Counted from the first letter of the stretch, positions 11,921 to 48,778 are shown. The stretch is 64,000 bases of DNA from a virus (IMGVR_UViG_3300035670_000105:1-64000), one strand, 5' to 3'. The notes: generated from the sequence alone by a model not told the origin. Made by a program: numbers and translations.

Positions 11921-12217
11921 ATGGGCCTCTTCAACTTCAACTTCTCCTCCACCATCACCTCCACCACCGCCACTGCTGATACCAGCAATACCCCTCAGGT
12001 GGTGGAACTGCAACTCAATGAGGAGCGCGTCACCGTCCCGATGACTGAAGCCGAAGGCAAGACCATCGCGCAACTGTTCGCCAGCTACAGCGGTGACTTG
12101 GGTGACATCAGCCGCATCAGCCGCTTCGTGGCTGCTGGCCGCATCGTGGATGCCGACAGCACCCCGGAAGCCGGCGTCGTCTACCGCGGCGCCATCAGCT
12201 CCGAATCCAAGGGCTGA
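11921..12217 (+). CDS. Ubiquitin-like (beta-grasp) protein ending in Gly
   Basis: 98 aa; S/T-rich leader then VVELQLNEERVTVPM...KTIAQLFA...GVVYRGAISSESKG*; first gene of the JAB/E2/E1 operon. Confidence 0.7.
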   Translation: MGLFNFNFSSTITSTTATADTSNTPQVVELQLNEERVTVPMTEAEGKTIAQLFASYSGDLGDISRISRFVAAGRIVDADSTPEAGVVYRGAISSESKG

Positions 12218-20779: not shown

Positions 20780-21003
20780 CGATGCGCCGATTCTGATTGG
20801 CATGGCGATCCTGCTGTTCCTCGGCATCGGAACGATGGCTGGTCTGGTGTGGATCACCAACAACTTGGTGCAGCAAGTGAAGCGAATTGACGGCGAGAGC
20901 AAGCAAGCACTGGAGCGTTCAACAGAAACGCTGCGCCAATGCACCGAGCAGCTCAGGTAGCCCCTCCCCGGGGGCCTTGAGCAACTGCCTTTCATCTCAG
21001 GCA

Positions 21004-21972
21004 ATGGCAACTGCAACCAAGGCTTCACGCAAACGAAAGACTGAAGGCCCCACACCAGAAGAGAAGCTCGTCGCCGGGCTGATCGAACTGCTGGAAGCTG
21101 GCGTCAACCCGTGGCAACGGGACTGGCGCGGCACCAGCCTGGGGCAACATCGCAACCTGATCTCCAGCGAGCCGTATCACGGCGGCAACCCTGCCCTGCT
21201 GGAGATGCAACTGGCGATGCGCGGCAGTGAACTGCCGCTCTGGGCTGGCCACGGCCAGGCCAAGAGCAAGGACTGGTACCCACGCAAGGGCAGCCGCGGC
21301 TGCTACATCGTGCGGCCCCAGCTCAACCGCTACGAGGAACTCGATGAGGGCGGCAAGCCCGTGCTCAACGAGCAGGGGGAAGCGCAACTACGGCAATGGA
21401 CATCGTTCAAGCCGGTGTGCGTCTTCAATGCCGCTGATCTGGAAGGGGAGGGCCTGGCCGAGGCGATTGCCGCGGCCATCGGCACCCCCGAGCAGCGGCA
21501 GGAGCCGGAGATCCTGCAGCAGGCAGAAGCGGTGCTGGGCGCCTGGTGCGTTCCTGTCACCTATGGCGGTAACAGCGCGTTCTATTCGCCCATGGCGGAT
21601 CGGATCACGCTGCCGCCACGGCATCAATTCCTCAGCGGCCCTGGCTTCTACGCCACCTGGGCGCATGAGGCGGTTCATAGCACGGGGCATGGCGATCGCC
21701 TGGCCCGTGACGGGATTGTGCACTTCGCGGGGCGCGCTTCCGAGAGCTACGCAAAGGAAGAGCTGATTGCTGAGCTGGGCGCCTTCCTACTGGGCGTGCG
21801 GCTGGAAATCGGCAGTGCCGTAGAGAACCACGCGGCCTACCTGGGCTCGTGGATTGCTGCGCTCAAAGCCCAGCCCAAGACGCTGCTGCAATCGCTGAGC
21901 GCAGCGACGAAAGCAGCCAACTTGATCCACCCCGAAACCATCACCCCGGCACCAGCCGGTGAAGACCAATGA
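21004..21972 (+). CDS. ardC: ArdC-family antirestriction/ssDNA-binding protein with zincin-like domain
   Basis: PWQRDW, NLIS..PYHGGN, VFNAADL, DRITLP, HEAVHSTGH, YAKEELIAELGA, HAAYLGSW. Confidence 0.9.
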   Translation: MATATKASRKRKTEGPTPEEKLVAGLIELLEAGVNPWQRDWRGTSLGQHRNLISSEPYHGGNPALLEMQLAMRGSELPLWAGHGQAKSKDWYPRKGSRGCYIVRPQLNRYEELDEGGKPVLNEQGEAQLRQWTSFKPVCVFNAADLEGEGLAEAIAAAIGTPEQRQEPEILQQAEAVLGAWCVPVTYGGNSAFYSPMADRITLPPRHQFLSGPGFYATWAHEAVHSTGHGDRLARDGIVHFAGRASESYAKEELIAELGAFLLGVRLEIGSAVENHAAYLGSWIAALKAQPKTLLQSLSAATKAANLIHPETITPAPAGEDQ

Positions 21973-33656: not shown

Positions 33657-34659
33657 CCGCTCGCGCCCCGTACTGCACCATCACCGGCCGCGTCATCAAT
33701 GGCGGCTGCAGTGGCGTTGCCCTTCTCAATGGCCACCCCCGCTGCCGCATCCCTGTCCTGACAGCCGGTGCACCATCGATTCAGACCGAAAGCGGCTGGC
33801 TCAGACCCGAACGCTCCCTCGTCTACGACAACCCCACCCTCCTACTCCATCACGCCGCAGCCACCCACCCAACCGTCATCCTCACCAAGGCGCAGCTGGC
33901 TGGCTTCTCCAAGACCGCCACCCGCCTCATCGCCCTTCTGCGCCCCTACCCCTGGGCCATCCCCCAGCCCCTCGACTGGCCCGAACCTGAACTCCTCCTC
34001 TTCTCCACCATCAACAACCCCCTGCTCTTCGATCTCATCCTCCTCAAGCGGCAGCTGCAGCAAGTTGAAAAGCTCCAGCTCCATACCCTCAGCGGCAGCT
34101 CATTCCTCGCCTACCGGCGTTGCTGATCTCCATGTCTGACTGGTCAGACCCCCTCTGGCATCAGCTCTACACCTCCCCCCATCAGCAGGCGATCCTCTCC
34201 GCACCCACCCCGCCCCAATCCCCCGACCCCGCCTACATCCAGATCCTCCAGCAGGCCGCCCAGCAGGCCGTCCCCCTGGAGGCCATCACCTTGACGGGGA
34301 TCGATGAAACCGCTCGCGCCCTCGATTGACCCATGAGCTTTCGCGCTTCTGCCGGTGCCCGGCCCTTCGGCCGCGCTGCCCTCAGCGGCGGCAAGCGCGG
34401 ACGCCCCACCGCCAATGCCACCTTCCAGTTCGCCGGCAGCGCTGAGCGCCTCAGCCCCCAGGCCCAGCGACTCATCGCCTCCCAGCGCTGGAATGAACAA
34501 CGCGGACGGGAGAAACCGGAAACCGCTCCCCAGAACCGCTCCATCTCCTCCGGCGCAGAGATCTCCGCCAGCCGCGGCACCTACCGCAGTGAACGCCGCT
34601 TCGCTGGTGAACAAACACCCTTCTCCACCGGCTCTGCCGCTGCCAATCCCTTCTCCTGA
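33653..34659 (+). CDS. Three hypothetical genes (33653..34126, 34132..34329, 34333..34659)
   Basis: Contiguous, translationally coupled ORFs. Confidence 0.5.
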
Positions 34660-34663
34660 TTCC

Positions 34664-35245
34664 ATGCTCAAGAACGACACCTGGATCCGCGAGCAAGCTG
34701 AACGGGGCATGATCGCCCCCTTTACCCCTGAACTCATCCGCCGCGTCGACAATCACGCCGTCATCTCCTACGGCCTGTCATCCTTCGGCTATGACCTCCG
34801 CCTCTCCTCTGATCAGTTCCTGATCTTCCGCCACATCCCCGGCACCGTCATCGACCCCAAGGCGTTCAACTCCGCCAACCTGGAGCGCGCCGTCTTGCAT
34901 CACGACAGCAACGGCAGCTTCTTCATCCTTCCGGCCCACTCCTATGGCCTGGGCGTAGCACTGGAGCGACTGGAAATCCCCAACGACATCACCTGCCAAT
35001 TCATCGGCAAGTCCACCTACGCCCGTTGCGGACTCATCGCTAATCTCACGCCCGGCGAAGCCGGCTGGCGCGGACATCTCACCCTGGAGTTTTCCAACTC
35101 CTCCAGTGCTGACTGCCGCATCTACGCCAACGAAGGCATCGTCCAGGCGCTGTTCCTGGAAGGCGAGGCCTGCGCTACCTCCTACGAGGACCGCCAGGGC
35201 AAGTACCAGGATCAACCTGCAGCCGTCACCCTCGCCCGCGTCTAG
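34664..35245 (+). CDS. dcd: dCTP deaminase
   Basis: MLKNDTWI, SYGLSSFGYDLRL, GKSTYARCG, PGEAGWRGHLTLE, YANEGIVQ, KYQDQ. Confidence 0.95.
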   Translation: MLKNDTWIREQAERGMIAPFTPELIRRVDNHAVISYGLSSFGYDLRLSSDQFLIFRHIPGTVIDPKAFNSANLERAVLHHDSNGSFFILPAHSYGLGVALERLEIPNDITCQFIGKSTYARCGLIANLTPGEAGWRGHLTLEFSNSSSADCRIYANEGIVQALFLEGEACATSYEDRQGKYQDQPAAVTLARV

Positions 35246-36552: not shown

Positions 36553-37161
36553 TCAGCCCTCCAGCTGCCGCACCAGCTGCCGCGCCTGCAAGGCCAGATC
36601 GGCGATGCTCCCGCCATTCCAGATGTCGGCATCGAACCGCCACTGCGCCAGGCCGCCTTCAGAGGCGTGGGCCAGCACCGTGTCATCCGTCACGCCAGTC
36701 GGCCGGCGGATCTGCACCATCACCCCACCAGGCAGCGTCTCGATCAGCGCTGCTTCATTGGGGAAGCGAACGTCATCAGCGACGACGGATGTGCCTTCGC
36801 CCAGGAGGCGCTCCACCTGGCCTTGCCAGCAGCGCAGCCACAGCTCGGGATGCACCTGCTGCCTCCCCCATTCCGTGCCCAATGTCTGCAGCAGATGCCG
36901 CGGCGTGACGCCATCGAGCGCATCGAGCGGCACCTCCTTGCGCACGCTCAGCAGCTCATCGATCAGCTCATCGGCGTAGCCCACCGCCTGCAGCAGCAGC
37001 CGTGCCATGGCCTTCAGGGTGCCGGCGAATGGCACCCGCACAAAGCCGTCCTCCACCAAAGCCTGGGCGAAGGTGCTCTTGCCGCTGCCGGGCACCGGCG
37101 AGTAGAGCCCGAGCACCAGTGGGCGGCTGCGCTCGGGATAGGGCGGGAGGGCCATCACCAT
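36553..37161 (-). CDS. Deoxynucleoside monophosphate kinase
   Basis: P-loop GSGKST, FAGTLK, PRHLLQTLGTEWGR, DDVRFPNEA, HASE. Confidence 0.9.
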   Translation of the reverse strand: MVMALPPYPERSRPLVLGLYSPVPGSGKSTFAQALVEDGFVRVPFAGTLKAMARLLLQAVGYADELIDELLSVRKEVPLDALDGVTPRHLLQTLGTEWGRQQVHPELWLRCWQGQVERLLGEGTSVVADDVRFPNEAALIETLPGGVMVQIRRPTGVTDDTVLAHASEGGLAQWRFDADIWNGGSIADLALQARQLVRQLEG

Positions 37162-38261: not shown

Positions 38262-39101
38262 TCACGCGCTCCAATGACGAACCTGTGCATCACGCACCTG
38301 GGGCAAGGACACCCCATAGGCCCTTTGCCAGGACAGTGTTCCCGCCTTCGCCATCTCGGGATCCACCTGCGGCAAAGGCCCCACCTGCACGCCACCCAGC
38401 GCGCCGCGGCTCACCGGCTTGAACGAGCCATCCGGCAGCGATGCAGCCGGTGGCGTCGGCGGCGGCAGGCTCGCCAGCGGTGCATTCACCCCCGCCGCCG
38501 CCAGCATCGGCGCCGCCAGCTTCGGGTTGGCCGCGGCCCATTGCTTCATGTCCTCCCGCTCCCAGTACGCCGCACTCATCGGATCCCGGCTCCGCCCCGG
38601 ATCCCCCGCAGCCGCCCTCCAGTCCGCCGCCGCCGCCGCCAGGGGCGGACTCGATTCCTGGGTGGCTGTGGTGGGGGCAGCTCCCGGGGCGGGGGTGGCA
38701 TTGCCCGGGTTGGGCAGTGCCATCGCGTAGCTGCCATCCGGCTGCTTCCACCGGCCCGTTCCCAGGTACTCCAGCTGCTGCGCGTTCAGGCCTGGGCGGT
38801 CCTTGCGTTTGGCCAGGTGCACATGCGTGCCATGGCCCGCATCGCCAGGACCAAGCACCTCATCGAACGTGCCCAGCTCACGCGCCCTCTGCATCAGGCG
38901 CTTCGTGCGCTCCTGCCAATGCAGCGATGGCCCGCCTTCGTACTCGGGCCCTTCATCGGCGCGGTGATCGGTGACATCGATCGCCTCGTCGTGGTAGTGG
39001 TACGAGTTCTCGGCATGCTTGCCGACAGGGCCAAACGCCTTGTGCTGCCCGACGCGCAGGCCGTAACCCTGCAGCGCCTTCCCGATGTCAACGATCGGCA
39101 T
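38262..39101 (-). CDS. LAS-type (M15-like) zinc peptidase-domain protein
   Basis: SYHYHDEAIDV (H-x6-D) and HVHLA (H-x-H). Confidence 0.6.
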   Translation of the reverse strand: MPIVDIGKALQGYGLRVGQHKAFGPVGKHAENSYHYHDEAIDVTDHRADEGPEYEGGPSLHWQERTKRLMQRARELGTFDEVLGPGDAGHGTHVHLAKRKDRPGLNAQQLEYLGTGRWKQPDGSYAMALPNPGNATPAPGAAPTTATQESSPPLAAAAADWRAAAGDPGRSRDPMSAAYWEREDMKQWAAANPKLAAPMLAAAGVNAPLASLPPPTPPAASLPDGSFKPVSRGALGGVQVGPLPQVDPEMAKAGTLSWQRAYGVSLPQVRDAQVRHWSA

Positions 39102-39417
39102 CGCTCTCCTCCTCTTCGCACTCGGCTGTGTCGATCAAGCCGTCGTTGAGGAGCACATCGAAGGGCAGAAACCCTTCTGGGTACGCCACTTCCAGCTGGA
39201 TGTCCATCGCCTGCAGGTGCTGGCGCACCACCTCCCTCTCCACCAGCCAGCCCCGCCATGTCGCCACCAGCACATGGCGCAGCTCCTCCTCATCCAACTC
39301 GTCGATCTGCAGTTCGACGCTGCGCAGCAACAGCTGGGCTGTTGGTGGCAGCAGTTCATCCAACCAGGGACCGACACCCGTGGCGTCATCACCAAAGGGA
39401 ACCGATTGCAGCTCCAT
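39088..39417 (-). CDS. NblA-like phycobilisome degradation adaptor
   Basis: LPPTAQLLLRSVELQIDELDEEELRHVLVATWRGWLVEREVVRQHL aligns without gaps to the NblA core as recalled (L.LEQQF.IRSF..QV..M...Q...FLV.LY.QM.V.E.....LL); TACCCT 21 nt upstream. Confidence 0.5.
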   Translation of the reverse strand: MELQSVPFGDDATGVGPWLDELLPPTAQLLLRSVELQIDELDEEELRHVLVATWRGWLVEREVVRQHLQAMDIQLEVAYPEGFLPFDVLLNDGLIDTAECEEEESDADR

Positions 39418-39524
39418 GGACAGTGCGCTGTTGGCCTGAGGGTAGGGAAGGTGGCAACTGAAGTTGTTGCTTTTCACGCCTGTTCCATTCACCCTGTCGA
39501 CTACAACGCCTTTGACACACACCG

Positions 39525-40415
39525 GTGTCCACCGACTTTCTCAGTCGCACCGCCGCCCGCTACCCCCTGCTGCGCCCCGACGAGGAAATCGAGCTGGGGC
39601 GCCAGATTCGCGCCTGGCAGGATCATCCTGACGGCCCGGACCAAGCCCCTGCTGCAGTGCAACGACGGGGCAGGCGAGCGCAGGATCGCTTCCTCCTCTG
39701 CAACCTTCGCCTCGCGCACTACATCGCCCGCCGCTTCAACAATCGCGGTGTGCCGATGGAGGATCTCGTCCAGTCCGCCACCGAAGGGCTGCTGCAGGCC
39801 GTACGCCGCTTTGAGCCGGCCAATGGCTTTCGCTTCTCCAGCTATGCGGTGTGGTGGGCGCAGCAGAGCTGCCAGATCGCCGTCGCCACGCAGGGCGGCG
39901 CCCTCAGGCTTCCCACCACCGTCAGCGAGGGATTGCGGCGTGTCGCCCGCGCTGGCGCTCGCCTGCGCGCTGAACTGAACCGCCCACCAACCGACGCCGA
40001 GATTGAAGAAGCGGCCAACCTCAAGCCCGGCCAGCTGCGCAATCTCCGCGCTGCCGCCAGGGCGGCGGACACCCGCTCCCTGCATGACCACGCCAGGCAG
40101 GGGGGCGGCTCCGATCCCAGCAGTGGAGACGCCACCTGGCTCGATCTCCTCGCTGACGACGACCAGCACGCCAAGGAGCTGGAGCAGCGCGATCTCAACC
40201 GCAGCCTGCGTCAGCTGATTGAAACCACGCCCACTCTCACTCCCCAGCAGCGGGAGGTGCTGCGATGCCGTTACCTGACCCCCACGCCACTGACCCATGT
40301 GCAGATCGCCTCGCGGCTGAACATCAACCGGGACACCTGCCGCAGGCTGGAGCGCAGCGCCCTGACCGTGCTCAAGGCGCGGGGGGTGCGGATCCGGGTC
40401 TTCCTGCCGAGCTGA
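39525..40415 (+). CDS. RpoD-like sigma70 factor
   Basis: YPLLRPDEEIELGR (1.2), NLRLAHYIARRF, DLVQ..TEGL..AV.RFEP..GFRFSSYAVWW, region 3, region 4 HTH. Confidence 0.92.
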   Translation: MSTDFLSRTAARYPLLRPDEEIELGRQIRAWQDHPDGPDQAPAAVQRRGRRAQDRFLLCNLRLAHYIARRFNNRGVPMEDLVQSATEGLLQAVRRFEPANGFRFSSYAVWWAQQSCQIAVATQGGALRLPTTVSEGLRRVARAGARLRAELNRPPTDAEIEEAANLKPGQLRNLRAAARAADTRSLHDHARQGGGSDPSSGDATWLDLLADDDQHAKELEQRDLNRSLRQLIETTPTLTPQQREVLRCRYLTPTPLTHVQIASRLNINRDTCRRLERSALTVLKARGVRIRVFLPS

Positions 40416-40730
40416 TTCAACCCCTGGAACTGCTGTTGCTGGCTGCCCCGCATGGGCAATGGCAAGGCGCTGCGTGCAGCTACGGCCTGGTACTGGAAGT
40501 GCTCAGCCTCAGTGAGCGGGCCCTGCGTCAGAGCGGGCTGCACACCAGTGCCGGCCAGCTGGAGGCCCTGGCGCGGGAGTTTCGCCGCCAGCGGCGCAGC
40601 CCACTGCTGATGGGCGATCTACCGCCACAGCGGCAACGGCAGATCGATGCGCTTCCCGTCCGCGAGCCACGCCAGCGGCGGCGGCGGCTGCCGCGCATCA
40701 AACCGCAGTAGCGCACGGGCGGTTGTGCCA

Positions 40731-40997
40731 ATGACCGCTCCGCCTGTTAGCTTTGCGTGCAGTTGCCCTCCTGCCGTGCCCGCCCGCCGCGCCACCCGCA
40801 GCGCCACCTGGGCCACCACATCCCAGTTGGCGGAAGAGATCGGCGTCTCCACTCGCACCATCCAACGGCTGCTCAGCCGCGGCCTCTTTCAACCCCAGGT
40901 GCACTGGCGGCCCATCAATCCCCTGATGGAGCACAGCCCCCGGCTGTGGCATCGGCAGCGTGTGGCCCAACTGCTCTGGAGCACTCATGAATCCTGA
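40731..40997 (+). CDS. Excisionase-like winged-HTH protein
   Basis: WATTSQLAEEIGVSTRTIQRL...HWR. Confidence 0.55.
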   Translation: MTAPPVSFACSCPPAVPARRATRSATWATTSQLAEEIGVSTRTIQRLLSRGLFQPQVHWRPINPLMEHSPRLWHRQRVAQLLWSTHES

Positions 40998-41292
40998 TCC
41001 GGCGCTGCTCGCCGACGACCGGTCCCGCGTCCTGCAGCTCGCTGCGCTACCTGCGCCGGACGAGCTGGCCTTGATTGACGCAGCGCGGCTGCTGATGCGC
41101 TACAGCCTGGAGGGATTCGGCAGTGATCTCCACCATCAACTGCAGGCGGTGATCGAGCACTGGGGGCTGACACGCCTGCAACTGCACGAGCGCACCCGGG
41201 CGCTCTGGGCCTCTGGTTGGCGACCCCGTCAGGATCCCGCCCAGCAGCTGGATGGCGTCAGCATCGGCTCTGGCGCTGATGTCGGAGGTTGA
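40987..41292 (+). CDS. DUF3288-family (cyanobacterial) protein
   Basis: DR..V..L...P....L.D.ARLLMRY...DL...L...W.LT...L..RTR.LW..G. Confidence 0.7.
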   Translation: MNPDPALLADDRSRVLQLAALPAPDELALIDAARLLMRYSLEGFGSDLHHQLQAVIEHWGLTRLQLHERTRALWASGWRPRQDPAQQLDGVSIGSGADVGG

Positions 41293-41294
41293 CG

Positions 41295-44200
41295 ATGACT
41301 GAACCGAACCTCCGTGCGCTGTGCGCTGAGCTGTTGAGCGCTATGGATAAGCTTTATAGGCAGTCCGTGACAACTCCGTATTCTCAGACGATTGAAATTG
41401 ACGGCATTCGACACGCAATCCCTATCGGGAAAGATATTCTTGCTCAGGATGCTGTTTATGCGGACTTGATGGACCGCGCCCGCGCCATACTGGCCCAGCC
41501 CGAGCTGCAGGGGCCAAGTGATGAAGCAATCATGCGACTTGCATGTATTTCGCTTGGCTATGAGTACACTCCATCTCTGCTCTCCAGTCCAGAAAACGAC
41601 ATTGGAGCACTGGACGCATTGCCCTCGGAGTTGCTGGCCTTCGCCCGCGCCGTCCTGCAACGCTTTGGCCGCCCCGACATTGAGCCGGTGGCGCAGCAGC
41701 AGGAGGTGGAGTGATGAGCACTGACTGGAAGGCGCTTTGCGCTGAGCTGGTACTACAGATGGATGCGATGGATGACTCTCGCCATTGGGACGACTCTCTT
41801 TATGAACGCGCCTGCGCCGCCCTGGCCCAGCCCGAGCCGCAGGGGGCGACGGATGAGGAGTTGGATACCTTTTTTCAGCAATGGAGAGATGTCAATACAG
41901 ATGCTGAAAGCTGGTTGACTGATGAACAAGAGCGTCGCCTTGCCCGCGACCTGTTCGCCCGCTACGGACTGGCCCAGTCCGAGCCGCAGGGAGTGAGGCA
42001 AGAAGCAGTCCTGGACTGGCTGCGTAACGACGAAGCCTGGGGAACGATTGTCGCGCCGAAAAGCTGGCGAGCCCAAGATGACAAACTTTTGAACCTTCTA
42101 CTACGAGCCATCGCTCATTTTGGCCGCGCCGCCATCAAGCCGGTGCCTGTCGCTGAGCGGTTGCCAGAACCCCACACGAAAGTCATCGCCCACTATCTGA
42201 ACGATCTCGGAAATTCTCGGACCATTCTTGCTGAGTGGGTGCCAGCAAAGTCACGGACCGATGACTGCTTAGTGGATGACGACTTTGCCGAATACGACGA
42301 AGAAGCCGATGAATACTATTGGCCGGAAGGCTGGTATGAAAGCATTGAGAACTGGGATGATTACGGGGCTGTGTTTGTTCACGAAGGCATGATTACGCAC
42401 TGGCAGCCGCTTCCGCGTGGGCCCCACTACGCCCTGCCGGTGTCGCAGCAGCAGGAGGTGAAGTAATGAGCACTGACTGGAAGACGTCTTGCCGCCCTGA
42501 GTGCTTCGATTTTGCCCTAGATGTTGTTGGCGATCCTGAGGCAACAGAGTTGCGGCTCTACGTTGAAGCGCTAGAGGCCCGTTGCACCGCCGTAGCCCAG
42601 CCTAAGCCGCAGGGGGCGACGCTTGATGACATTGTGGAGCTGTGCGCCGAACACGAATTCATGCTTGGCGTTGACGGTGCCAATGAGGACGAGAGTGCCG
42701 AAGGGCTTTTGGAAATCGCCTGCGCCGTCCTCGCCCGCTGGGGGCGCCCCGTCATTGAGCCGGTGCCTGTCACTGAGCGGTTGCCGGGAGAGGGAGATAA
42801 AAACGAGGAGGGTGAAGTATGGGTTGAAGAACCGGGCTATTCGCATTCGCTTGCGGACACAGGTGACTACGACTGGGAGCCACACCGCTATGTCCTACGT
42901 GATATTCAAGACCGAGACCATCGCCGTAACCATCGCTGGGTTCCCCACTGGGCCCTGCCGGTGCCGCAGCAGGAGGTGGAGTGATGACTGACACTTTCCG
43001 TGCGCTATGCGATGAGGAGGAGAACTAATGGCTGAGGACATTGACCTGGTCCGCACGATGGACTCACGGACGTGGGCCGCTGAGTTCATGCGAATTACGG
43101 GCGGCGCGATTGACGAGCAGACCATGATCTCTTGGTTTGCCAACGCAATCATGTGCGGCTGGGATCATCACTACTGGCAGTCCGACGAGTACAAGCAAGC
43201 GGTGGCGAGTGCGCTGCAGCCGGAGCTGGTGCAGGAGTGGCGAGCAGCAGTAGGAGGTGGAGTGATGACACCTCTCTCACCAGAAGCTCAGGCTGTGCTG
43301 GATGCGCTCACGCAAAAAGAATACGGCCTAGATCCTGCGGACATTCCAAATGAAGCTCGGCGCCTGGCCTGTATAGCCGCCGCCGTATTGCGTGAGGCTG
43401 CGGATCAGGTGGTGCCAGAGCTTGGCAGGCCCCGCACGGCAGACGAGCGCACTTTGTACCACGAAGGACGGCTTGATGCGGTCATTCGACACAGGCAGCA
43501 TCTCCTCACCATCGCCGCCGAGCTGGAGCAGGTGGCAAATATCAACACTACGGAGGCAGCATCATGAGCAACGAACACCTGATCACCCCGCCGCCAGAAC
43601 TGAGGCGGGAATGGCGCGAAAAGGCCACTGAAGCCGGGCTCGTTGACGAGGAAATCTTCGCCGCTTTCTCTATCCAATGGGGAGCCGACCAGGAACTGAA
43701 GGCGTGCTGTGAGTGGCTCATCGCTTGGGACACCTGCGAAGGTGAGAAACTTGCTTCTCTTTTGCGCGAAGGACGCCGCCCGCAGCCGCCGAGTTTGAAG
43801 GAGCAGGCACTGGAAGCTCAGCAACGCATGGGGGACGGAGGTTGCACACATGAGGACTGGCAGCTTGTCCGCCGCGCACTGGAGGCTCTGCCCAATGACT
43901 GACCTATCACCCGCTGCCCAGGCGATAAAGGATGCCGTGCTTGCGCTCTATGCCGATGAAATGGTTCACAAGTTCGGATGGCAGCTTGACGCGCCCACTG
44001 TTGCTGCCGCCCTGCGAGCTGCTGCAGATCAGGTGGTGCCGGAGCAGGCGCTTGAAGACGTGCCTGGTCGCTTTGTCAAGGGCTGCTGCCACGCCCGACT
44101 GCAGGACACACGCGCCGAACTTCTCGCCATCGCCGCCGAGCTGGAGCAGGCGGCTTCCAACAACATTACGGAGAAACCATGAACACTGAACACCCGATCA

Positions 44201-45004
44201 CCCCGCCGCCGGAGCTGGTGCAGCAGTGGCGAGCAGCAGCCAGCAACGTGCCAGCAACGTACTTCTGTGAGGGAGTTCGCTTTGACTACATCGACTACAT
44301 CGCCACCCGCGCCGCCCAATGGGGTGCCGACCAAGAGCTGGAGGCGTGCCGCATGGAGATCATAGATGGAGCAGGACGTGCCTACATCAATGAAACTTGC
44401 AATCGCGTTTGCTTGGCCGATGACATTTGGTCCGCCCGACGCCCCAAGCCGCCGAGCTTGAAGGAGCAGGCACTAGCCGTGCTACCAGAAAGGCTTGGTA
44501 GTGGATTCATGGCAACAATCAACGACAAGGAACTTGACATCCTCCGCCGTGCTATCGAGGCCCTGCCCAATGACTGACTCAAAGCAACAACACCGCGCCA
44601 CGCCTGAGCAGTGGGCGAGTATTGACGACCCAGAGAATCCATTTGCCTACGAGGTTTGCATCCTCGAATTGCGCGACCGCATCGCAGCGCTGGAAGCAGG
44701 GCAAACCTGCCCGCACATCGTCACCAGCGACGAAGGGACCAGCTACTGCGCGTTGGCCGAGCAGACGCATTCCAAGCCAACTCCTAATGATCGCCAAATT
44801 AGGAGTTCGCCTGACCATTTTGAGCAGGTCAACAAAATGGTCACCAGCTCGCTGGTGGAGCGGGTTCAGAGTGCGATAAGTGATGTGGAGTTTCCGCATG
44901 GCACCGACGAAGCCCGCGCCGCGATTCGTGAGGTGGCGGCTTGGATACGGGAGCGCGGTTGGGACTTGGGAGCCCGAGCGCTGGAGCGGGAGGCCGAGGG
45001 ATGA
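41295..45004 (+). CDS. Array of eight small modular ORFs (41295..41714, 41711..42466, 42466..42984, 43028..43567, 43564..43902, 43895..44182, 44179..44577, 44570..45004)
   Basis: Shared terminal modules (ALCAEL, AQPEPQG, GRP.IEPV, QQEVE, ITPPPEL, QWGADQEL.AC, PPSLKEQAL, AADQVVPE, IAAELE). Confidence 0.75.
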
Positions 45005-45750
45005 TCACTGACGCCGACTTCCAGGTTCTCGCCGCCAACAATCGCGTTCCAGCGCTTGACCTCGCTCAGGTCTTCAGTGCTGGCGAACGCCAGAAACGAA
45101 TTGACAGCTGGATGACTCAGCTGGAGCAACTCGGCGTCCTGACCGGCTACGACCGCAACGTGCTTCAGCAGTGGCAAGATGCCGGCTATCCAGGTGCACG
45201 CCCCCAGCTGTCGATCGAGATCAACGCTCCCTACAGAGAACAGGACGAAGAAAAGCAACAGACCGCTGCTCAGCGACTAATTCGACAAGAGCAGCGCATG
45301 CTTGACGAATGGCTTAGACATGGGCAATTACGCACCGAAGTAGAACAAGAACAGCGCCTGCTGCGGCACTACCCCATCTCTTATCCCGCTTTCATCCGGC
45401 GTCAACAGGAACTGGAGCAAGCTCGCAAGGAAGCACTTCGCGCCCAACTCATCGCCGACCGCGAACGTCAAAAAGCTGAACAACTGGAAAGAGAAGCGCT
45501 TGAGTCCCTCAAGCGGCAAATGGAAGAAGATCGCAGGCAGCTCACCGCAAGGGTCGAGGCTTACGTCGAAGACCCGCTGGGCAGCACCTTCGACCTGACC
45601 GAAGGCGAGTTCACCCACTGGTGCGACGAGATCGCCACCCCTGAGCAACTGGATGCGCTCACCAATGCCTTGGCAGCCCGTGGCCGCTACAACGCGCTGC
45701 CACCCTGGCAGCGCTGGTTGCTCACGCGCCTTGCTCCCTTACTCGCCTAG
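45001..45750 (+). CDS. Hypothetical coiled-coil protein
   Basis: Q/E/R-rich ORF converging on the integrase. Confidence 0.6.
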   Translation: MITDADFQVLAANNRVPALDLAQVFSAGERQKRIDSWMTQLEQLGVLTGYDRNVLQQWQDAGYPGARPQLSIEINAPYREQDEEKQQTAAQRLIRQEQRMLDEWLRHGQLRTEVEQEQRLLRHYPISYPAFIRRQQELEQARKEALRAQLIADRERQKAEQLEREALESLKRQMEEDRRQLTARVEAYVEDPLGSTFDLTEGEFTHWCDEIATPEQLDALTNALAARGRYNALPPWQRWLLTRLAPLLA

Positions 45751-47096
45751 TCGCTGCTCCCGCCCGAACCCAGCAGCTGCTGCAGTGCTGCCATCTGCAA
45801 CCGCAACTGCTCCAGCTCCTGCCTCTCCCCATCAGCCAACACATCACGCCGCGCTGCGTCAAACTGCTGCTGCTGGTGGCGGCGCATTCGACCTGGCGGC
45901 AGCCATCGCAGGTAGATGCGCTGATGCACCTCCCAGCTGTGCCCAAGCCATGCCGCTTGCTGCTCTGGATCCACGCCGGCCGTCTCAGCACTGGTGGCGC
46001 AGCGGATCGCATAGCTGTGCCGCAAGTCATACGGCCGCAGCCAATCCACACCCTCTCCCTCCGCCACTGGCGCCACCAATCGCTGCACGCCGCGCAGGGT
46101 GAACTGCTTGCGCAGGTACTGACCCAACTCAGCATTGTTCACCGGAATCATCACTCCGCCGCGCTGCTCCCATCTGATCGGCCAACGCTCCAGCAACTGG
46201 CCGCGGCGCCAGGGCCATTGCTCCGCCAGTCGGTAGCGCTGCAGCCAGCGGCCTGGCACCGGCGGCGCAAAGTGCGCCCTGGCGGATTTGGTGCGCATCT
46301 CACCCGGGATCGTCACCCATCCCCTCGCATCCACCCCCTCGATGTGCCACAGCTCATGCGGGCGGATGCCATAGGTGGCTGCCACGGCGAACACCCACTG
46401 GTTGAAGCCGTCCAACCCATCCAGCCATGCCTCGATCGCGCTGTCGCTGGGCACCAGCCGCACCCGTAGCCCCTGGGCTGCAGCCAGTCGCACCGCCGCA
46501 CCTCGCGGCCGGCGATTGCGCAGCTCGGCCAGCACTGGCGGCAGAGCCAGCTCAGGCGCAACCCGATCGATCCAGCTGAGCACTTCCAGCCTGCGGTTGT
46601 AACTGCGCCGCTGCTCCAACGGATCCACCTGCCGGGCCCATTCACCCAGGGCCTGCGCCGATGGCACGCCCTGGAGCTGGGCGATCCGCAGCCGCAGATC
46701 GTTGAGCAGATGCACCCGGCTGCCCTGCTTCGGGATCGCCTTGATCACCTCCGCACTCACCTGCTCCGCCAGCACCTGCCAGCTGCTGCCGCCACTGGAG
46801 CGCTGCTGAGGCCGTGGCTGCGGCCAGCCCTTCTGCTTCACCGCCAGCAGGCACAGCTCCGCCGCGGCCGTGATGTCCTCGCTGCGATCACAGCGCAGGG
46901 GGGCCAACGAGAACCGCTCCACCGTCATCCCCACCTCCATCCGCCGCACCCAGAGATGGGGCGAATCGCGGCGGCGCCACAACCGCCAGGGGCTGCCGGC
47001 CGCCTGTAACCGGCGCAGCGCCAGTAACCAGTGCGCCTCCACCTCCCCATCACCCCATCCCGCCTGTCTTGCCTGTGATGACGGATGAGACGACAT
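45747..47096 (-). CDS. int: Tyrosine recombinase (integrase); start uncertain
   Basis: YGIRPHEL (R), TK, YDLRHSYA, LGHS...H..IY; adjacent to a tRNA 3' fragment. Confidence 0.85.
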   Translation of the reverse strand: MSSHPSSQARQAGWGDGEVEAHWLLALRRLQAAGSPWRLWRRRDSPHLWVRRMEVGMTVERFSLAPLRCDRSEDITAAAELCLLAVKQKGWPQPRPQQRSSGGSSWQVLAEQVSAEVIKAIPKQGSRVHLLNDLRLRIAQLQGVPSAQALGEWARQVDPLEQRRSYNRRLEVLSWIDRVAPELALPPVLAELRNRRPRGAAVRLAAAQGLRVRLVPSDSAIEAWLDGLDGFNQWVFAVAATYGIRPHELWHIEGVDARGWVTIPGEMRTKSARAHFAPPVPGRWLQRYRLAEQWPWRRGQLLERWPIRWEQRGGVMIPVNNAELGQYLRKQFTLRGVQRLVAPVAEGEGVDWLRPYDLRHSYAIRCATSAETAGVDPEQQAAWLGHSWEVHQRIYLRWLPPGRMRRHQQQQFDAARRDVLADGERQELEQLRLQMAALQQLLGSGGSSD

Positions 47097-47205
47097 TCCA
47101 TGCACGCTGGCGTGCACGAATCCTGCCGCATCCGGTCCATCTCTGTCCCTGTCTGTCACCCGTTGGACAGGCGGGAAGATCGGTGAGACGCCAGTGCTGG
47201 CCAAT

Positions 47206-47230
47206 AAAAAACCCCGCCGGAGCGGGGTTT
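47206..47230 (-). terminator. Terminator downstream of the tRNA fragment
   Basis: Minus strand AAACCCCGC-TCCG-GCGGGGTTTTTT. Confidence 0.8.
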
Positions 47231-47237
47231 GTGAGAA

Positions 47238-47282
47238 TGGCTCGGGGGAGACTTGAACTCCCGACCTTGGGGTTATGAACCC
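47238..47282 (-). mobile_element. attP core: 3' half of a tRNA with CAT anticodon (Met or Ile2)
   Basis: Minus strand GGGTTCATAACCCCAAGGTCGGGAGTTCAAGTCTCCCCCGAGCCA = anticodon arm, T-arm and acceptor 3' strand; no 5' half present. Confidence 0.85.
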
Positions 47283-47575
47283 ATCGACAAACCCCTGAGA
47301 AACCCCTGCTATCACAGGCTTCTCCATGCACGCCCCGCAGGCTGCCGTGCACGCCGGCTCTCAGTTCTCCTCCAACAGCAACCGGAACACCGTCAGCAGG
47401 CAGCTCTCCAGCAGTGCCTGCTGCAGGGCAGCCAGGCTGCACTCACCGCGGCGGTAGCGGCCCAGCGCGCCCTGCACATCGAGCAGCAACACCTCAGCCA
47501 CCTCAGCCCCCTGAAACCCCTGCCGCTTCACCTGCTGCCGCCAGCGCAGTGGAATGATCCGCTTCCACATCGTCC

Positions 47576-48778
47576 TCAGCCCCCATCCACCAAGAAGCGA
47601 TGCACCCACATCCCGCCGCGGTTCAGATCCAGCGTGTTGCTCAGGTACACCCGGGCCGCGTCCGCAGCGCTGCTGCCTGCCACGCACGCGGCGTAGATGC
47701 ACTGATCGCTGTAGAACCCATCGAAGAACTTCTCTGGACCGCGATACCGCCAGCTCTGCGCGTAGAACTCCCCCCAGGGATCCTTGACATCGAAGTCGTG
47801 ACGCTTGCCGCCATCACGGCTCTTCAGTCCATCCAGCGCAATCACGTGGCCGCTCACCGTGAACCAACCATGGGTGATCAGGAACTCACCAGCCTTCAGC
47901 CATTCACAGCACATGGCCAGCGATGCGCTGGCCTCGTAGCGGTAGGGCCTCCTGTAGCTGCGGATCACCGCGGCCATCACGCCAGGGCTGCCGGCTGAGC
48001 TGCCCTGCCGCTTAGCCTCCGCATCCAGCTTGCGGCGAATGCCCAGCACATCGGGATCGCCCACCGCCATGCCGATCGCCGCGGCCTGACAGGTGCGGCT
48101 GTCGGGCTGGCTGATGTTCAAGGCCTTGATCGCCGTCACCCACTGCGTTCGCTCTGCCGGCTTCACCGCTGGCAAAGGTGGTGGCAGGGGGGCGTGTTGA
48201 TCCATCAACGCCACGAGCTTGCTCGCGTAGGCCGGATCGGTGGCATACCCCTCCAGCACCAGCAATCGCGCCGCCTCCTTGCGATCCGCAGCGCGGTTCA
48301 CCCCATGCCAGCGCTTGCCTTCGCTGCTGGTGTAATCGCGGTACCAGCGATCCACCAGATACTTCACTGCCGCGTCCAGGCTCTCAAAGTCCTTGAACTC
48401 AGCGCGGATGGCCACCGGCTTGCCGTTCAGCACCTCTGTCGTGTTCTTCCAGGTGCCAGTGCCCTTCAGCCCGAACGGATTGTTCCTCCCTGAGAAGCTC
48501 TGGCCATGCCCGCTCTCCAGTGCCCACTGCGCTGCCACCAGCTCAGGGAACGCCGCCCCATGCCGCTGCGCCGCATGTGCGATCCCGCCCCAGCTATTAC
48601 CCGCCACTTGGCTGCCACCCATCTCACCTTTGACCGGTGGCTCGGCGCGGAACATCTCCAGGAACTCCTCCTGCTGCTGCTTGCTCAGCAGTGTCCACGC
48701 CCAGTTCCACGCCGCATCCTGATGCGGCAACCGCTTCTCCCGATCTGTGTACCGCGCTGCACTGAGAAAATCGGGCAC
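47576..48778 (-). CDS. Endolysin: GH73 glucosaminidase + C39-like peptidase
   Basis: AAQWALESGHG, NNPFGLKG, GYATDPAY; then QPDSRTCQ...GHVI...DPWGE; GTG start 21 nt after TACCCT. Confidence 0.85.
   Translation of the reverse strand: MPDFLSAARYTDREKRLPHQDAAWNWAWTLLSKQQQEEFLEMFRAEPPVKGEMGGSQVAGNSWGGIAHAAQRHGAAFPELVAAQWALESGHGQSFSGRNNPFGLKGTGTWKNTTEVLNGKPVAIRAEFKDFESLDAAVKYLVDRWYRDYTSSEGKRWHGVNRAADRKEAARLLVLEGYATDPAYASKLVALMDQHAPLPPPLPAVKPAERTQWVTAIKALNISQPDSRTCQAAAIGMAVGDPDVLGIRRKLDAEAKRQGSSAGSPGVMAAVIRSYRRPYRYEASASLAMCCEWLKAGEFLITHGWFTVSGHVIALDGLKSRDGGKRHDFDVKDPWGEFYAQSWRYRGPEKFFDGFYSDQCIYAACVAGSSAADAARVYLSNTLDLNRGGMWVHRFLVDGG

Follow-up and report, generated by a model that had tools for sequence, protein, structure and literature searches.

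The window analysed here is a 64,000-nucleotide (nt) stretch (IMGVR_UViG_3300035670_000105:1-64000) of a 90,162-bp linear IMG/VR virus entry, rated complete by CheckV and belonging to a cyanophage-like phage. Between positions 41295 and 45750 it carries an array of ten small + strand genes that are linked by overlapping stops and starts (-1, -4 or -8 nt). A GGAG-type motif lies 6-13 nt ahead of every start, within the preceding gene, and all products are acidic (pI 4.1-5.2). The original prediction described the locus as a row of shuffled mini-genes with conserved ends and variable middles. The explanation that best accounts for the whole, and which we consider likely, is a shuffled array of accessory small genes in which short homologies mediate recombination.

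Judged from sequence profiles, the genes include members of four separate families, A, B, C and D: hhalign probabilities were 0.3% for C against B and 0.5% for B against A, and profile-profile comparison revealed no C-B or B-A link. The array opens with three A genes. A1 (41295-41714, 139 aa) is a short form that starts with ATGACTGA, ends in ..GRPDIEPV-AQQQEVE and lacks the DUF551 domain. A2 (41714-42466, 250 aa) is a long form with an internal repeat of an AQ(P/S)EPQG linker and a DUF551 domain at residues 146-237; this part passes the Pfam gathering score of PF04448 (24.3 bits for a cut-off of 22, E 5.9e-5) and matches Synechococcus phage S-CBWM1 at 48.5%, and also an E. coli phage, in tblastn searches. 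A3 (42466-42984, 172 aa), which matches no Pfam family at E 0.1, has a short divergent tail that retains EPVPV.ERLP and HWALPVPQQEVE. There follow a4 (42984-43028), a 14-codon A-type remnant (MTDTFRALCDEEEN) that represents the third copy of a repeat family, and an open reading frame (ORF) of 179 aa (43028-43567) fused from four pieces: X (up to ~43219), the fragment C' (43216-43250), an A-type junction in another reading frame (43247-43268) and lastly B1, which keeps its own Shine-Dalgarno (SD) motif and its own ATG at 43265, behind GGAGGTGGAG. The second half comprises C1 (43564-43902, 112 aa), B2 (43895-44182, 95 aa), C2 (44179-44577, 132 aa), D (44570-45004, 144 aa) and E (45001-45750, 249 aa), all on the + strand. 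C1 and C2 match phrog_32006 over nearly its full length (E 8.4e-19, profile positions 3-114 of 116, and E 1.2e-23, positions 2-114 of 116, respectively). B2 and D both start with ATGACTGA, which overlaps the stop of C1 and of C2, respectively, by 8 nt, and the charged, glutamine/glutamate-rich E, joined to D by an ATGA overlap, is the last gene of the coupled run. The paralogs share 48% (B1/B2) and 49% (C1/C2) amino-acid identity, and no further copies of A, B, C or X were found elsewhere in the 90,162-bp record. The predicted order A-A-A-X/B-C-B-C-D matches these ORFs and their protein alignments, to which the remnant at 42984-43028 and a tenth coupled gene at 45001-45750 have to be added.

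At the DNA level, a 22-nt A-type junction (GCAGCAGGAGGTGGAGTGATGA) made of a ..QQQEVE stop, an SD motif GGAGG and GTGATGA recurs four times on the + strand with at most three mismatches (41696-41717, 42448-42469, 42966-42987 and 43247-43268), against no occurrence in 100 shuffles, with a weaker fifth copy (76%) at 44980. The recurring SD/stop/start junction of the original prediction is thus located at four sites. Since the A-type tail CCGCAGCAGGAGGC..TGATG also ends A genes of other phages, we regard this junction as a family feature that holds the SD motif for the next gene. The five predicted repeat pairs between 43.5 and 44.6 kb were likewise recovered, namely 43502/44120 (61 nt, 80% identity), 43563/44178 (65 nt, 75%), 43674/44316 (34 nt, 88%), 43774/44437 (38 nt, 89%) and 43868/44543 (36 nt, 86%), and correspond to B1/B2 and C1/C2. 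The interiors are indeed richer in AT, the GC content being 0.67 in family-conserved columns (1137 nt) versus 0.56 in the others (2661 nt).

Three scars are visible in the window. In the first, a4 retains just the N-terminal block of an A gene (MTDTFRALC), directly followed by the SD motif and TAATG start of X. The second lies within the fusion. X exists as a free-standing gene of 64-74 aa in four loci of other phages (L088-L091) and is 82% identical to the window X over residues 1-65; the DNA homology to L088/L089 stops near 43205-43222, and near 43216 the end of X is replaced by the C-type 5' fragment C', 94% identical to 44205-44239. Across this region the window reads CTGCAGCCG, versus CTGCCGCCG in the X relatives and CCGCCGCCG in C2. 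C' goes on matching C2 for 10 nt past the block and is joined at GCAGCAG to the A-type junction; because the frames differ, the ORF bypasses the A-type stop and continues into B1. The chimera reported at 43028-43567 is therefore borne out, as it passes the fourth junction in another frame, contains PELVQEWRAA and carries, at 43216-43250, a copy of the 5' end of C2. The third scar concerns A1, whose end (IEPV-AQQQEVE) looks like the product of a loss of DUF551 between the PVP codon repeats that bracket this domain in A2, A3 and long forms elsewhere. That DUF551 is bracketed in this way follows from the two types of ends seen across phages, IEPV(P)QQE.. in short A forms and ..HALPVPQQE.. in long ones. 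Fusions also occur in other phages, an A-B fusion at L058:6338-6751 and a C-B fusion at L090:7844-8362, and in some proteins of family C, 170-280 aa long, two or three separate stretches align with the 113-position profile, these being tandem C-C fusions within one ORF.

The families are widespread. Family C corresponds to phrog_32006, a PHROGs family of unknown function. A pattern search of IMG/VR returned at least 616 loci encoding a C relative (616 of 620 among the matches listed), the best being 59% identical among the matches listed, and a profile built from 79 C proteins retrieved 2688 cluster representatives at E <=1e-3, and 1814 at E <=1e-10, among 1.84 billion. Copies are present in the cultured Synechococcus phages S-H1, S-RIP1 and S-CBS2, where they are annotated as hypothetical. 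Among prokaryote genomes, 11 loci were found, all on contigs of metagenome-assembled genomes, four labelled Synechococcus or Cyanobium and the rest assorted freshwater bins; as such labels are unreliable, we drew neither a host name nor prophage status from them. For locus comparison we fetched 80 loci (750,654 nt; L-numbers), all comparison genomes being metagenome assemblies. A, B, C and D are found together on hundreds of viral contigs, where their order and copy number vary and C is frequently followed by B, with, for instance, five C genes in L017, the order C-B-A-A in L029, sixteen family genes in L011, and a further arrangement in L058, while relatives of D adjoin C genes in L033, L034, L060, L071, L076 and L089. 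The locus is hence not invariant among related phages, the outcome that would have spoken against shuffling, since the four families recur in varied orders and numbers across the 80 loci.

The genes of the different families are connected by a common joint. Of 63 distinct family-gene junctions, 49 are overlaps, of 8 nt (28), 4 nt (15), 1 nt (5) or 13 nt (1). The 8-nt overlap is ATGACTGA, in which ..AT GAC TGA closes the upstream gene and ATG ACT GA opens the following one, whichever families flank it. This octamer opens 17/20 A, 30/53 B, 17/91 C and 1/5 D genes; the 750,654 nt of loci hold 155 copies on the gene strand, 63 of them at family starts, and 7 on the opposite strand. Further families use it, because among the 92 copies that lie outside the four families, 80 begin an ORF of at least 40 codons. 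The window contains six copies, four of which are array gene starts, the other two being at 12041 and 12285 (+). A second type of joint, a 14- or 19-nt spacer TAGTC-N5-CACT before the start, was observed in 10 of the 63 junctions (L010, L036, L045, L074, L084, L014 and L017) and is absent from the window.

The conserved blocks within the genes share more than their amino acids. At conserved residues, the observed codon sharing exceeds the expected one in family C (0.67 vs 0.35; 79 genes averaging ~45-50% amino-acid identity), A (0.76 vs 0.35), B (0.55 vs 0.33) and D (0.55 vs 0.34), whereas observed/expected ratios were 0.94-1.45 in 12 control clusters of other genes of these loci (37-62% identity), and 1.08-1.12 for the longer genes. 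The median excess of codon sharing per column reached 0.36 in C (n=43) and 0.39 in A (n=24) versus 0.02 in the controls (n=571; Mann-Whitney p 6e-17 and 2e-10, respectively). Rare codons are fixed too, as illustrated in family C by Leu94 (TTG in 84% vs 10% elsewhere), Pro91/Pro92 (CCG in 88-93% vs 16%) and Ala56 (GCG in 89% vs 13%). The C blocks keep a GC content of 0.65-0.70 in loci whose own GC is 0.46-0.63 (the loci overall span 36-66% GC), which is why the interiors look AT-rich. By this codon comparison, the conserved blocks are kept as DNA and not only as protein. An earlier argument against DNA-level conservation, based on a baseline of codon identity, was dropped, as the comparison with control genes indicates that this baseline is itself the signal. 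A thirteenth control cluster with a high ratio was excluded because it proved to be the antisense shadow of C genes: long open frames run antisense across C genes on the minus strand, at 43405-43851 in the window and in L022, L033, L050, L053, L055, L059, L079 and L080. They are most likely shadows, not genes, which cluster as a 'family' because the C blocks are conserved as DNA.

Between the blocks, segments are exchanged among phages. Family C is built of four blocks (HPITPPPELVQQW, AAQWGADQELEACC, ARRPKPPSLKEQAL and IRRALE) enclosing three variable segments, V1 to V3. In 47-50 of 3081 pairs of C genes, one segment is at least 90% identical in nucleotides while another is at most 60% identical and usually unalignable; 44 of the 79 genes take part in such mosaic pairs, and no pair has all three segments in common. 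Among the 26 pairs with a common V1, V2 is also common in 6 and V3 in none, and the 19 pairs with a common V3 never share V1 or V2. All 49 segment-sharing C pairs were mosaic and none uniform, versus four of each kind among the controls. Mosaic pairs are rarer in families B (5/1326) and A (1/231).

Two direct recombinants were identified. L017 and L020 are 99.8-99.9% identical over 5.6 kb and differ in length by a 686-nt deletion, the C gene of L020 joining the first 85 residues of one L017 copy to the final 30 of the copy after next, with a crossover inside a 46-nt LRAARRPKPPSLKEQA block in which a single base distinguishes the two parents. In L041 and L033, the A genes are ~96% alike over their first 156 nt, up to an AQPEPQGPTDEE block, then diverge, and meet again in 29 identical bases (..WGRPAIEPVP), after which DUF551 follows in L041 only, L033 ending in PQQEAE.

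The age of the window paralogs indicates where this exchange takes place. Their codon agreement at identical residues (0.64 for C1/C2 and 0.58 for B1/B2) is close to the inter-phage means at like divergence (0.60 and 0.55), so that, on sequence grounds, the B and C paralogs of the window are old and without sign of recent exchange. In a tree of family C, the C genes form a single clade in none of the 14 loci that hold several of them, and well-supported branches force separate origins in 12 of the 14; C2 groups with copies from six other contigs (SH-aLRT 99), not with C1. The A genes of the window are closer to each other (codon identity 0.77-0.86 vs 0.59-0.69), and both the derived start MSTDWK and a 57-nt junction (89% identity) are common to A2 and A3, a likeness that points to local duplication or conversion. 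The 'recombination-driven combinatorial library' of the original prediction consequently holds at the level of the population, where it agrees with the variation in order and copy number, the reassortment of segments, the two recombinants and the scars. It does not hold as a device inside this genome or as a programmed system: the library resides in the phage population, because the B and C copies of the window are no more alike than inter-phage copies and the C copies are not sisters.

Several observations weigh against a shuffled array, or narrow what may be said of this phage. The antiquity of the B and C paralogs just described is one of them, and the tree behind it is a quick version, poorly resolved, with 39 of 76 inner branches open. 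The mosaic share of C pairs (49/3321, 1.5%) is little above that of control genes (4/704, 0.6%). The variable segments of the window are mostly unique in the sample, the best match being that of C2 V2 to L011 (0.81) and the others reaching at most 0.67; reassortment is for this reason shown in the relatives, not in this phage. Blocks shared by many phages could in principle cause chimeric contigs in metagenome assemblies, and codon conservation could stem from an RNA or DNA function instead of recombination. Finally, although a weak PD-(D/E)XK exonuclease is present, no single-strand-annealing-type recombinase was recognised in PHROG and Pfam scans of the larger ORFs of the window.

Sequencing reads bear on the integrity of the assembly. 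Of the stretch's words, 69-82% are found in four runs of one study; the runs listed as holding the stretch include no RNA. In run X3, Logan contigs cover 40600-41340, 41817-42482, 42957-43531 (the whole chimera), 43503-43924 and 44969-45816 with zero differences and a depth of 95-131. Conserved bins reach a depth of 10,741, versus ~95-131 for unique parts, because many co-occurring phages have the same words. An 842-nt contig of the same run matches the A3 part (42541-42976) with one difference at a depth of 64.1, about half that of its neighbours, and then departs from the window over ~400 nt; it may come from another phage or from a variant strain in which a different gene follows A3. A 486-nt contig of run X5, from freshwater and another study, matches the DUF551 part of A2 (42155-42450) at ~97% and breaks at the EPVPV block, its first 190 nt being unlike the window. 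Coverage gaps in runs X5 and X7 and most joints seen in reads were considered as variants of this phage and rejected, since they come from other block-sharing phages, as exemplified by an A-type stop directly followed by MTDFRALC.

Different processes could have produced such a locus. That the array, or the mosaics of its relatives, are chimeric metagenome assemblies that jump at shared blocks is a very unlikely explanation in our estimate. It draws on the high depth of the conserved bins, on the many relatives with the same words and on Logan contigs that break at blocks, such as the 842-nt contig that leaves the window after A3. The unique pieces of the window are nevertheless even in depth and free of differences in run X3, chimera included; multi-copy arrays are 100% identical over 8-11 kb across samples (L014/L015/L016, L059/L061, L051/L052, L056/L057 and L038/L040); and the longest identical blocks are short (29-46 nt). 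Ordinary tandem duplication followed by divergence, with repeats that are mere leftovers of protein-level selection and codon bias and no special recombination, would fit the distance between the B and C paralogs, the separate placement of the C copies and the coincidence of the DNA repeats with conserved protein motifs. Against it, codon choice is far more uniform than in the 12 control clusters of similar divergence, rare codons included, variable segments at least 90% alike are found between otherwise unalignable genes, and two recombinants were caught directly (L017/L020 and L041/L033), so that we consider this explanation unlikely as well. Somewhat easier to entertain, while still rather improbable, is that the blocks are kept for an RNA or DNA function (ribosome binding, pausing, protein binding or a coupling structure), recombination being a by-product. 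The blocks do contain SD-like strings (AAGGAG in ..SLKEQ.., CTGGAGG in ..ALE.. and CAGGAGG in ..QQE..), and the terminal ones, 6-13 nt ahead of the next start, plausibly drive coupling; yet the internal blocks ITPPPEL, QWGADQELEAC and AQPEPQGPTDEE are equally codon-conserved with no start codon behind them, and the observed crossovers fall in such internal blocks.

A cassette system of the integron, shufflon or diversity-generating retroelement type, run by the neighbouring recombinase with the junction as its site, would account for the recombinase gene that abuts the array, for the near-constant junction that flanks A-type genes and for the single octamer that joins most genes of several families. 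We give it hardly any credence, and the array is not a programmed system. Among five array-bearing records searched whole, two integrase-less ones being rated 98-100% complete, an integrase (PF00589) was found in 1/5, more than 30 kb from the array, and a relative of the window-type recombinase in 0/5, from which we conclude that adjacency to integration genes is not a feature of these arrays. Crossovers sit in different internal blocks instead of one site. Neither a linked recombinase nor the inverted repeats expected at each cassette end characterise the arrays: no regular inverted repeats occur at the joints, and those present in 40500-46000 are scattered. As to retroelements, no reverse transcriptase was found among 62 window ORFs with PHROGs or 33 with Pfam, scans confined to the larger ORFs of bases 1-64000 of the record, and the array repeats are coding blocks of 65-94% identity, not a template/variable pair.

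The shuffled array of accessory genes may be set within the genome as follows. A rightward arm holds replication and nucleotide-metabolism genes up to ~35 kb, and a leftward arm holds the endolysin and tail genes from ~47.5 kb; between the two arms lie, in order, a sigma factor (39525-40415), a helix-turn-helix (HTH) protein, a DUF3288 gene and the array. The MerR/excisionase-like HTH protein (40647-40997, +) is matched by Pfam MerR (E 3.1e-4) and HTH_17 (E 2.4e-3), by phrog_66 'excisionase and transcriptional regulator' (E 1.9e-5) and by PADLOC mad1 (E 1.7e-6); its real start is probably further in, as suggested by a long arginine- and alanine-rich N-terminal stretch. The DUF3288 protein (40960-41292, +; PF11691, E 9.4e-12) stops 2 nt ahead of the A1 start. 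On the other side, a divergent tyrosine recombinase, or integrase (45747-47327, -), matches phrog_1 (E 2.5e-8) and NCBIfam XerA (E 0.003, below the cut-off), with no Pfam family at E 0.1. The location 'between excisionase and integrase' proposed in the original prediction is consequently correct only roughly, given that the HTH protein has only weak excisionase/MerR matches, that the DUF3288 gene intervenes and that the recombinase is divergent. E and the recombinase gene are convergent, their stop codons overlapping tail to tail at 45747-45750, and the terminator scan revealed no terminator-like site between them. A strong terminator-like hairpin (47230-47209, -; 9 pairs, then TTTATT) lies just 3' of the endolysin gene and within the 5' end of the integrase's longest ORF; this position suggests that a later ATG is probably the start of the integrase, which would form a transcription unit of its own. 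A promoter scan of 38500-48500 gave no promoter-like sites (1.5 expected), and the only + strand terminator-like site in the array is a weak one inside A1.

Elsewhere in the early arm, an ArdC-like protein (20887-21972, +) combines an ArdC N-terminal domain with a zincin-like metallopeptidase and is named anti-restriction protein in PHROGs. The early region also carries a dCTP deaminase-like gene (34355-35245) and a deoxynucleoside monophosphate kinase-like gene (36553-37161), which may hint at a modified nucleotide pool. Peptide-pattern searches of IMG/VR found no relatives of the integrase, of E or of the sigma factor, and no near-strain relative of the window.

Structure and profile searches brought no functional match for the array proteins. 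AlphaFold2 models predict five helices for C2 (pLDDT, the per-residue model confidence, 80.4) and three for B2 (pLDDT 79.2). Foldseek comparison of these models with the PDB gave nothing at E <=0.001 (best E-values of 1.4 for C2 and 3.5 for B2), a wide VIA search peaked at a Z of 5.5, which for helical models lies under the noise level, BFVD returned family members only and the ESM Atlas unnamed viral clusters only. When the profiles of C, B and A were compared with PDB sequences, only weak helical or coiled-coil noise emerged, the best matches being SlyX (0.27), glycerol dehydratase (0.045) and syntaxin (0.002). With PADLOC and NCBIfam at E 0.01, 0/9 array proteins were matched, in libraries that hold few anti-defence proteins. 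These results speak neither for nor against the anti-defence or host-range effectors suggested in the original prediction. Function is thus read solely from context (early arm, coupled, small, acidic and diversified), because neither a relative outside the own family nor a defence or NCBI model was matched. By the position of the array and by analogy with phage lambda's exo-xis region, the products are most likely non-essential proteins made early, with a role in host interaction or regulation and with variable segments that would set the target.

This region of lambda provides a first point of comparison. Its exo-xis genes are early, non-essential and mosaic among relatives, and the V2 variant of Ea22 has a DUF551 C-terminal domain, according to the parts of the article drawn on here (PMC10834534). 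The two regions resemble each other in that small early genes lie beside the integration module of a temperate phage and that one member combines a variable helical N-terminal part with a portable C-terminal DUF551. DUF551 is, however, the only common part; the lambda genes are not tandem paralogs, no codon-conserved blocks are reported in those parts of the article, and the arrays of the window's relatives are mostly not beside an integrase. At E 0.1, Pfam found DUF551 in A2 and no other family in A1, A2 or A3, which are therefore not of the Ead_Ea22 type: the likeness is one of position and domain architecture only.

In the hyperplastic regions of T4-type phages, PeSL cassettes, units of an intergenic promoter and a stem-loop terminator, separate small non-essential early genes and are associated with 'modular shuffling' in the portions of Arbiol et al. 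consulted (2010, PMC2839356). As with these cassettes, short conserved sequences that recur between small early genes mark sites of insertion, deletion and replacement. The unit of the array differs, being a coding stop/start overlap (ATGACTGA, TGATGA) with the SD motif inside the upstream gene, complemented by in-gene blocks; the overlap of the genes leaves no intergenic space, and neither promoter-like sites (0) nor regular stem-loops were seen in the array. The gp38 tail-fibre adhesins of T2/T6-type phages, which bind host receptors, carry hypervariable segments between conserved glycine-rich motifs, segments described as 'easily interchanged' in the relevant part of Trojet et al. (2011, PMC3157838). 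A conserved core arranged in blocks with independently exchanged segments is also what family C displays (79 genes) and, more weakly, B and A. In contrast to gp38, C is early, non-structural, all-helical and present in tandem copies, and several unrelated families behave alike in one array; as no Pfam family or PDB match was found for C, the likeness would lie in the mode of working, not in kinship.

Regarding the engine of the shuffling, De Paepe et al. (2014, PMC3945230) describe, in the part considered here, relaxed homologous recombination by Rad52-like recombinases of lambdoid coliphages, which yields mosaics with traces of homology at the borders of fragments. The short imperfect homologies at such borders are reminiscent of the array blocks and, by this analogy, relaxed homologous recombination is a plausible engine, with the differences that a Rad52-like recombinase was not recognised in the window and that the array homologies lie inside genes and are apparently maintained. 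The array belongs to none of the gp38, PeSL or relaxed-recombination systems, its linkers being coding blocks and a stop/start overlap shared across unrelated families. A literature search found no published account of the joint or of the array families; the present analysis adds a view across several families (A with DUF551, B, D and X), the ATGACTGA joint, the control-tested codon conservation of A and C and the scars of the window.

Taken together, the array would be an accessory 'hyperplastic' small-gene region closing the early, rightward arm of a cyanophage at its distal end; besides E, it holds five or more families (A with or without DUF551, B, C, D and X) whose small and acidic products are mostly helical. 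It is probably read as one message through translational coupling, since each start overlaps or abuts the prior stop and a GGAG-type site occupies the last codons of the gene upstream. The 25-60-nt blocks and the joint ATGACTGA would act as short homologies, at which recombination between tandem paralogs and between co-infecting phages would swap variable segments; the same recombination would add, lose or fuse whole genes and attach or remove DUF551. This would yield, across the population, a mix-and-match set of proteins in which variable inserts are combined with a constant scaffold; the window may represent one combination of this set, composed of old paralogs and three scars presumably left by less tidy, microhomology-mediated deletions.

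A stronger proposition, which we advance only tentatively and judge doubtful at present, is that the blocks and the in-frame joint ATGACTGA were selected as recombination linkers and that several unrelated families of picocyanobacterial phages have evolved a common 'DNA-shuffling' system. If so, a gene, a domain such as DUF551 or a segment could be moved between co-infecting phages with the reading frame intact, and host-interaction proteins would be kept by the phages as a standing repertoire of combinations.

In cyanophages from freshwater and marine habitats, these families form an abundant 'dark matter', and they offer an unusually clean natural case of segment and cassette shuffling in coding DNA, with linker codons frozen across very different base compositions. 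The blocks are ready primer sites for a field survey of the repertoire, and ATGACTGA is a simple marker for further cassette families. If target specificity is determined by the variable segments, the arrays would constitute a population-level repertoire in the arms race between phages and their picocyanobacterial hosts, which are of global importance.

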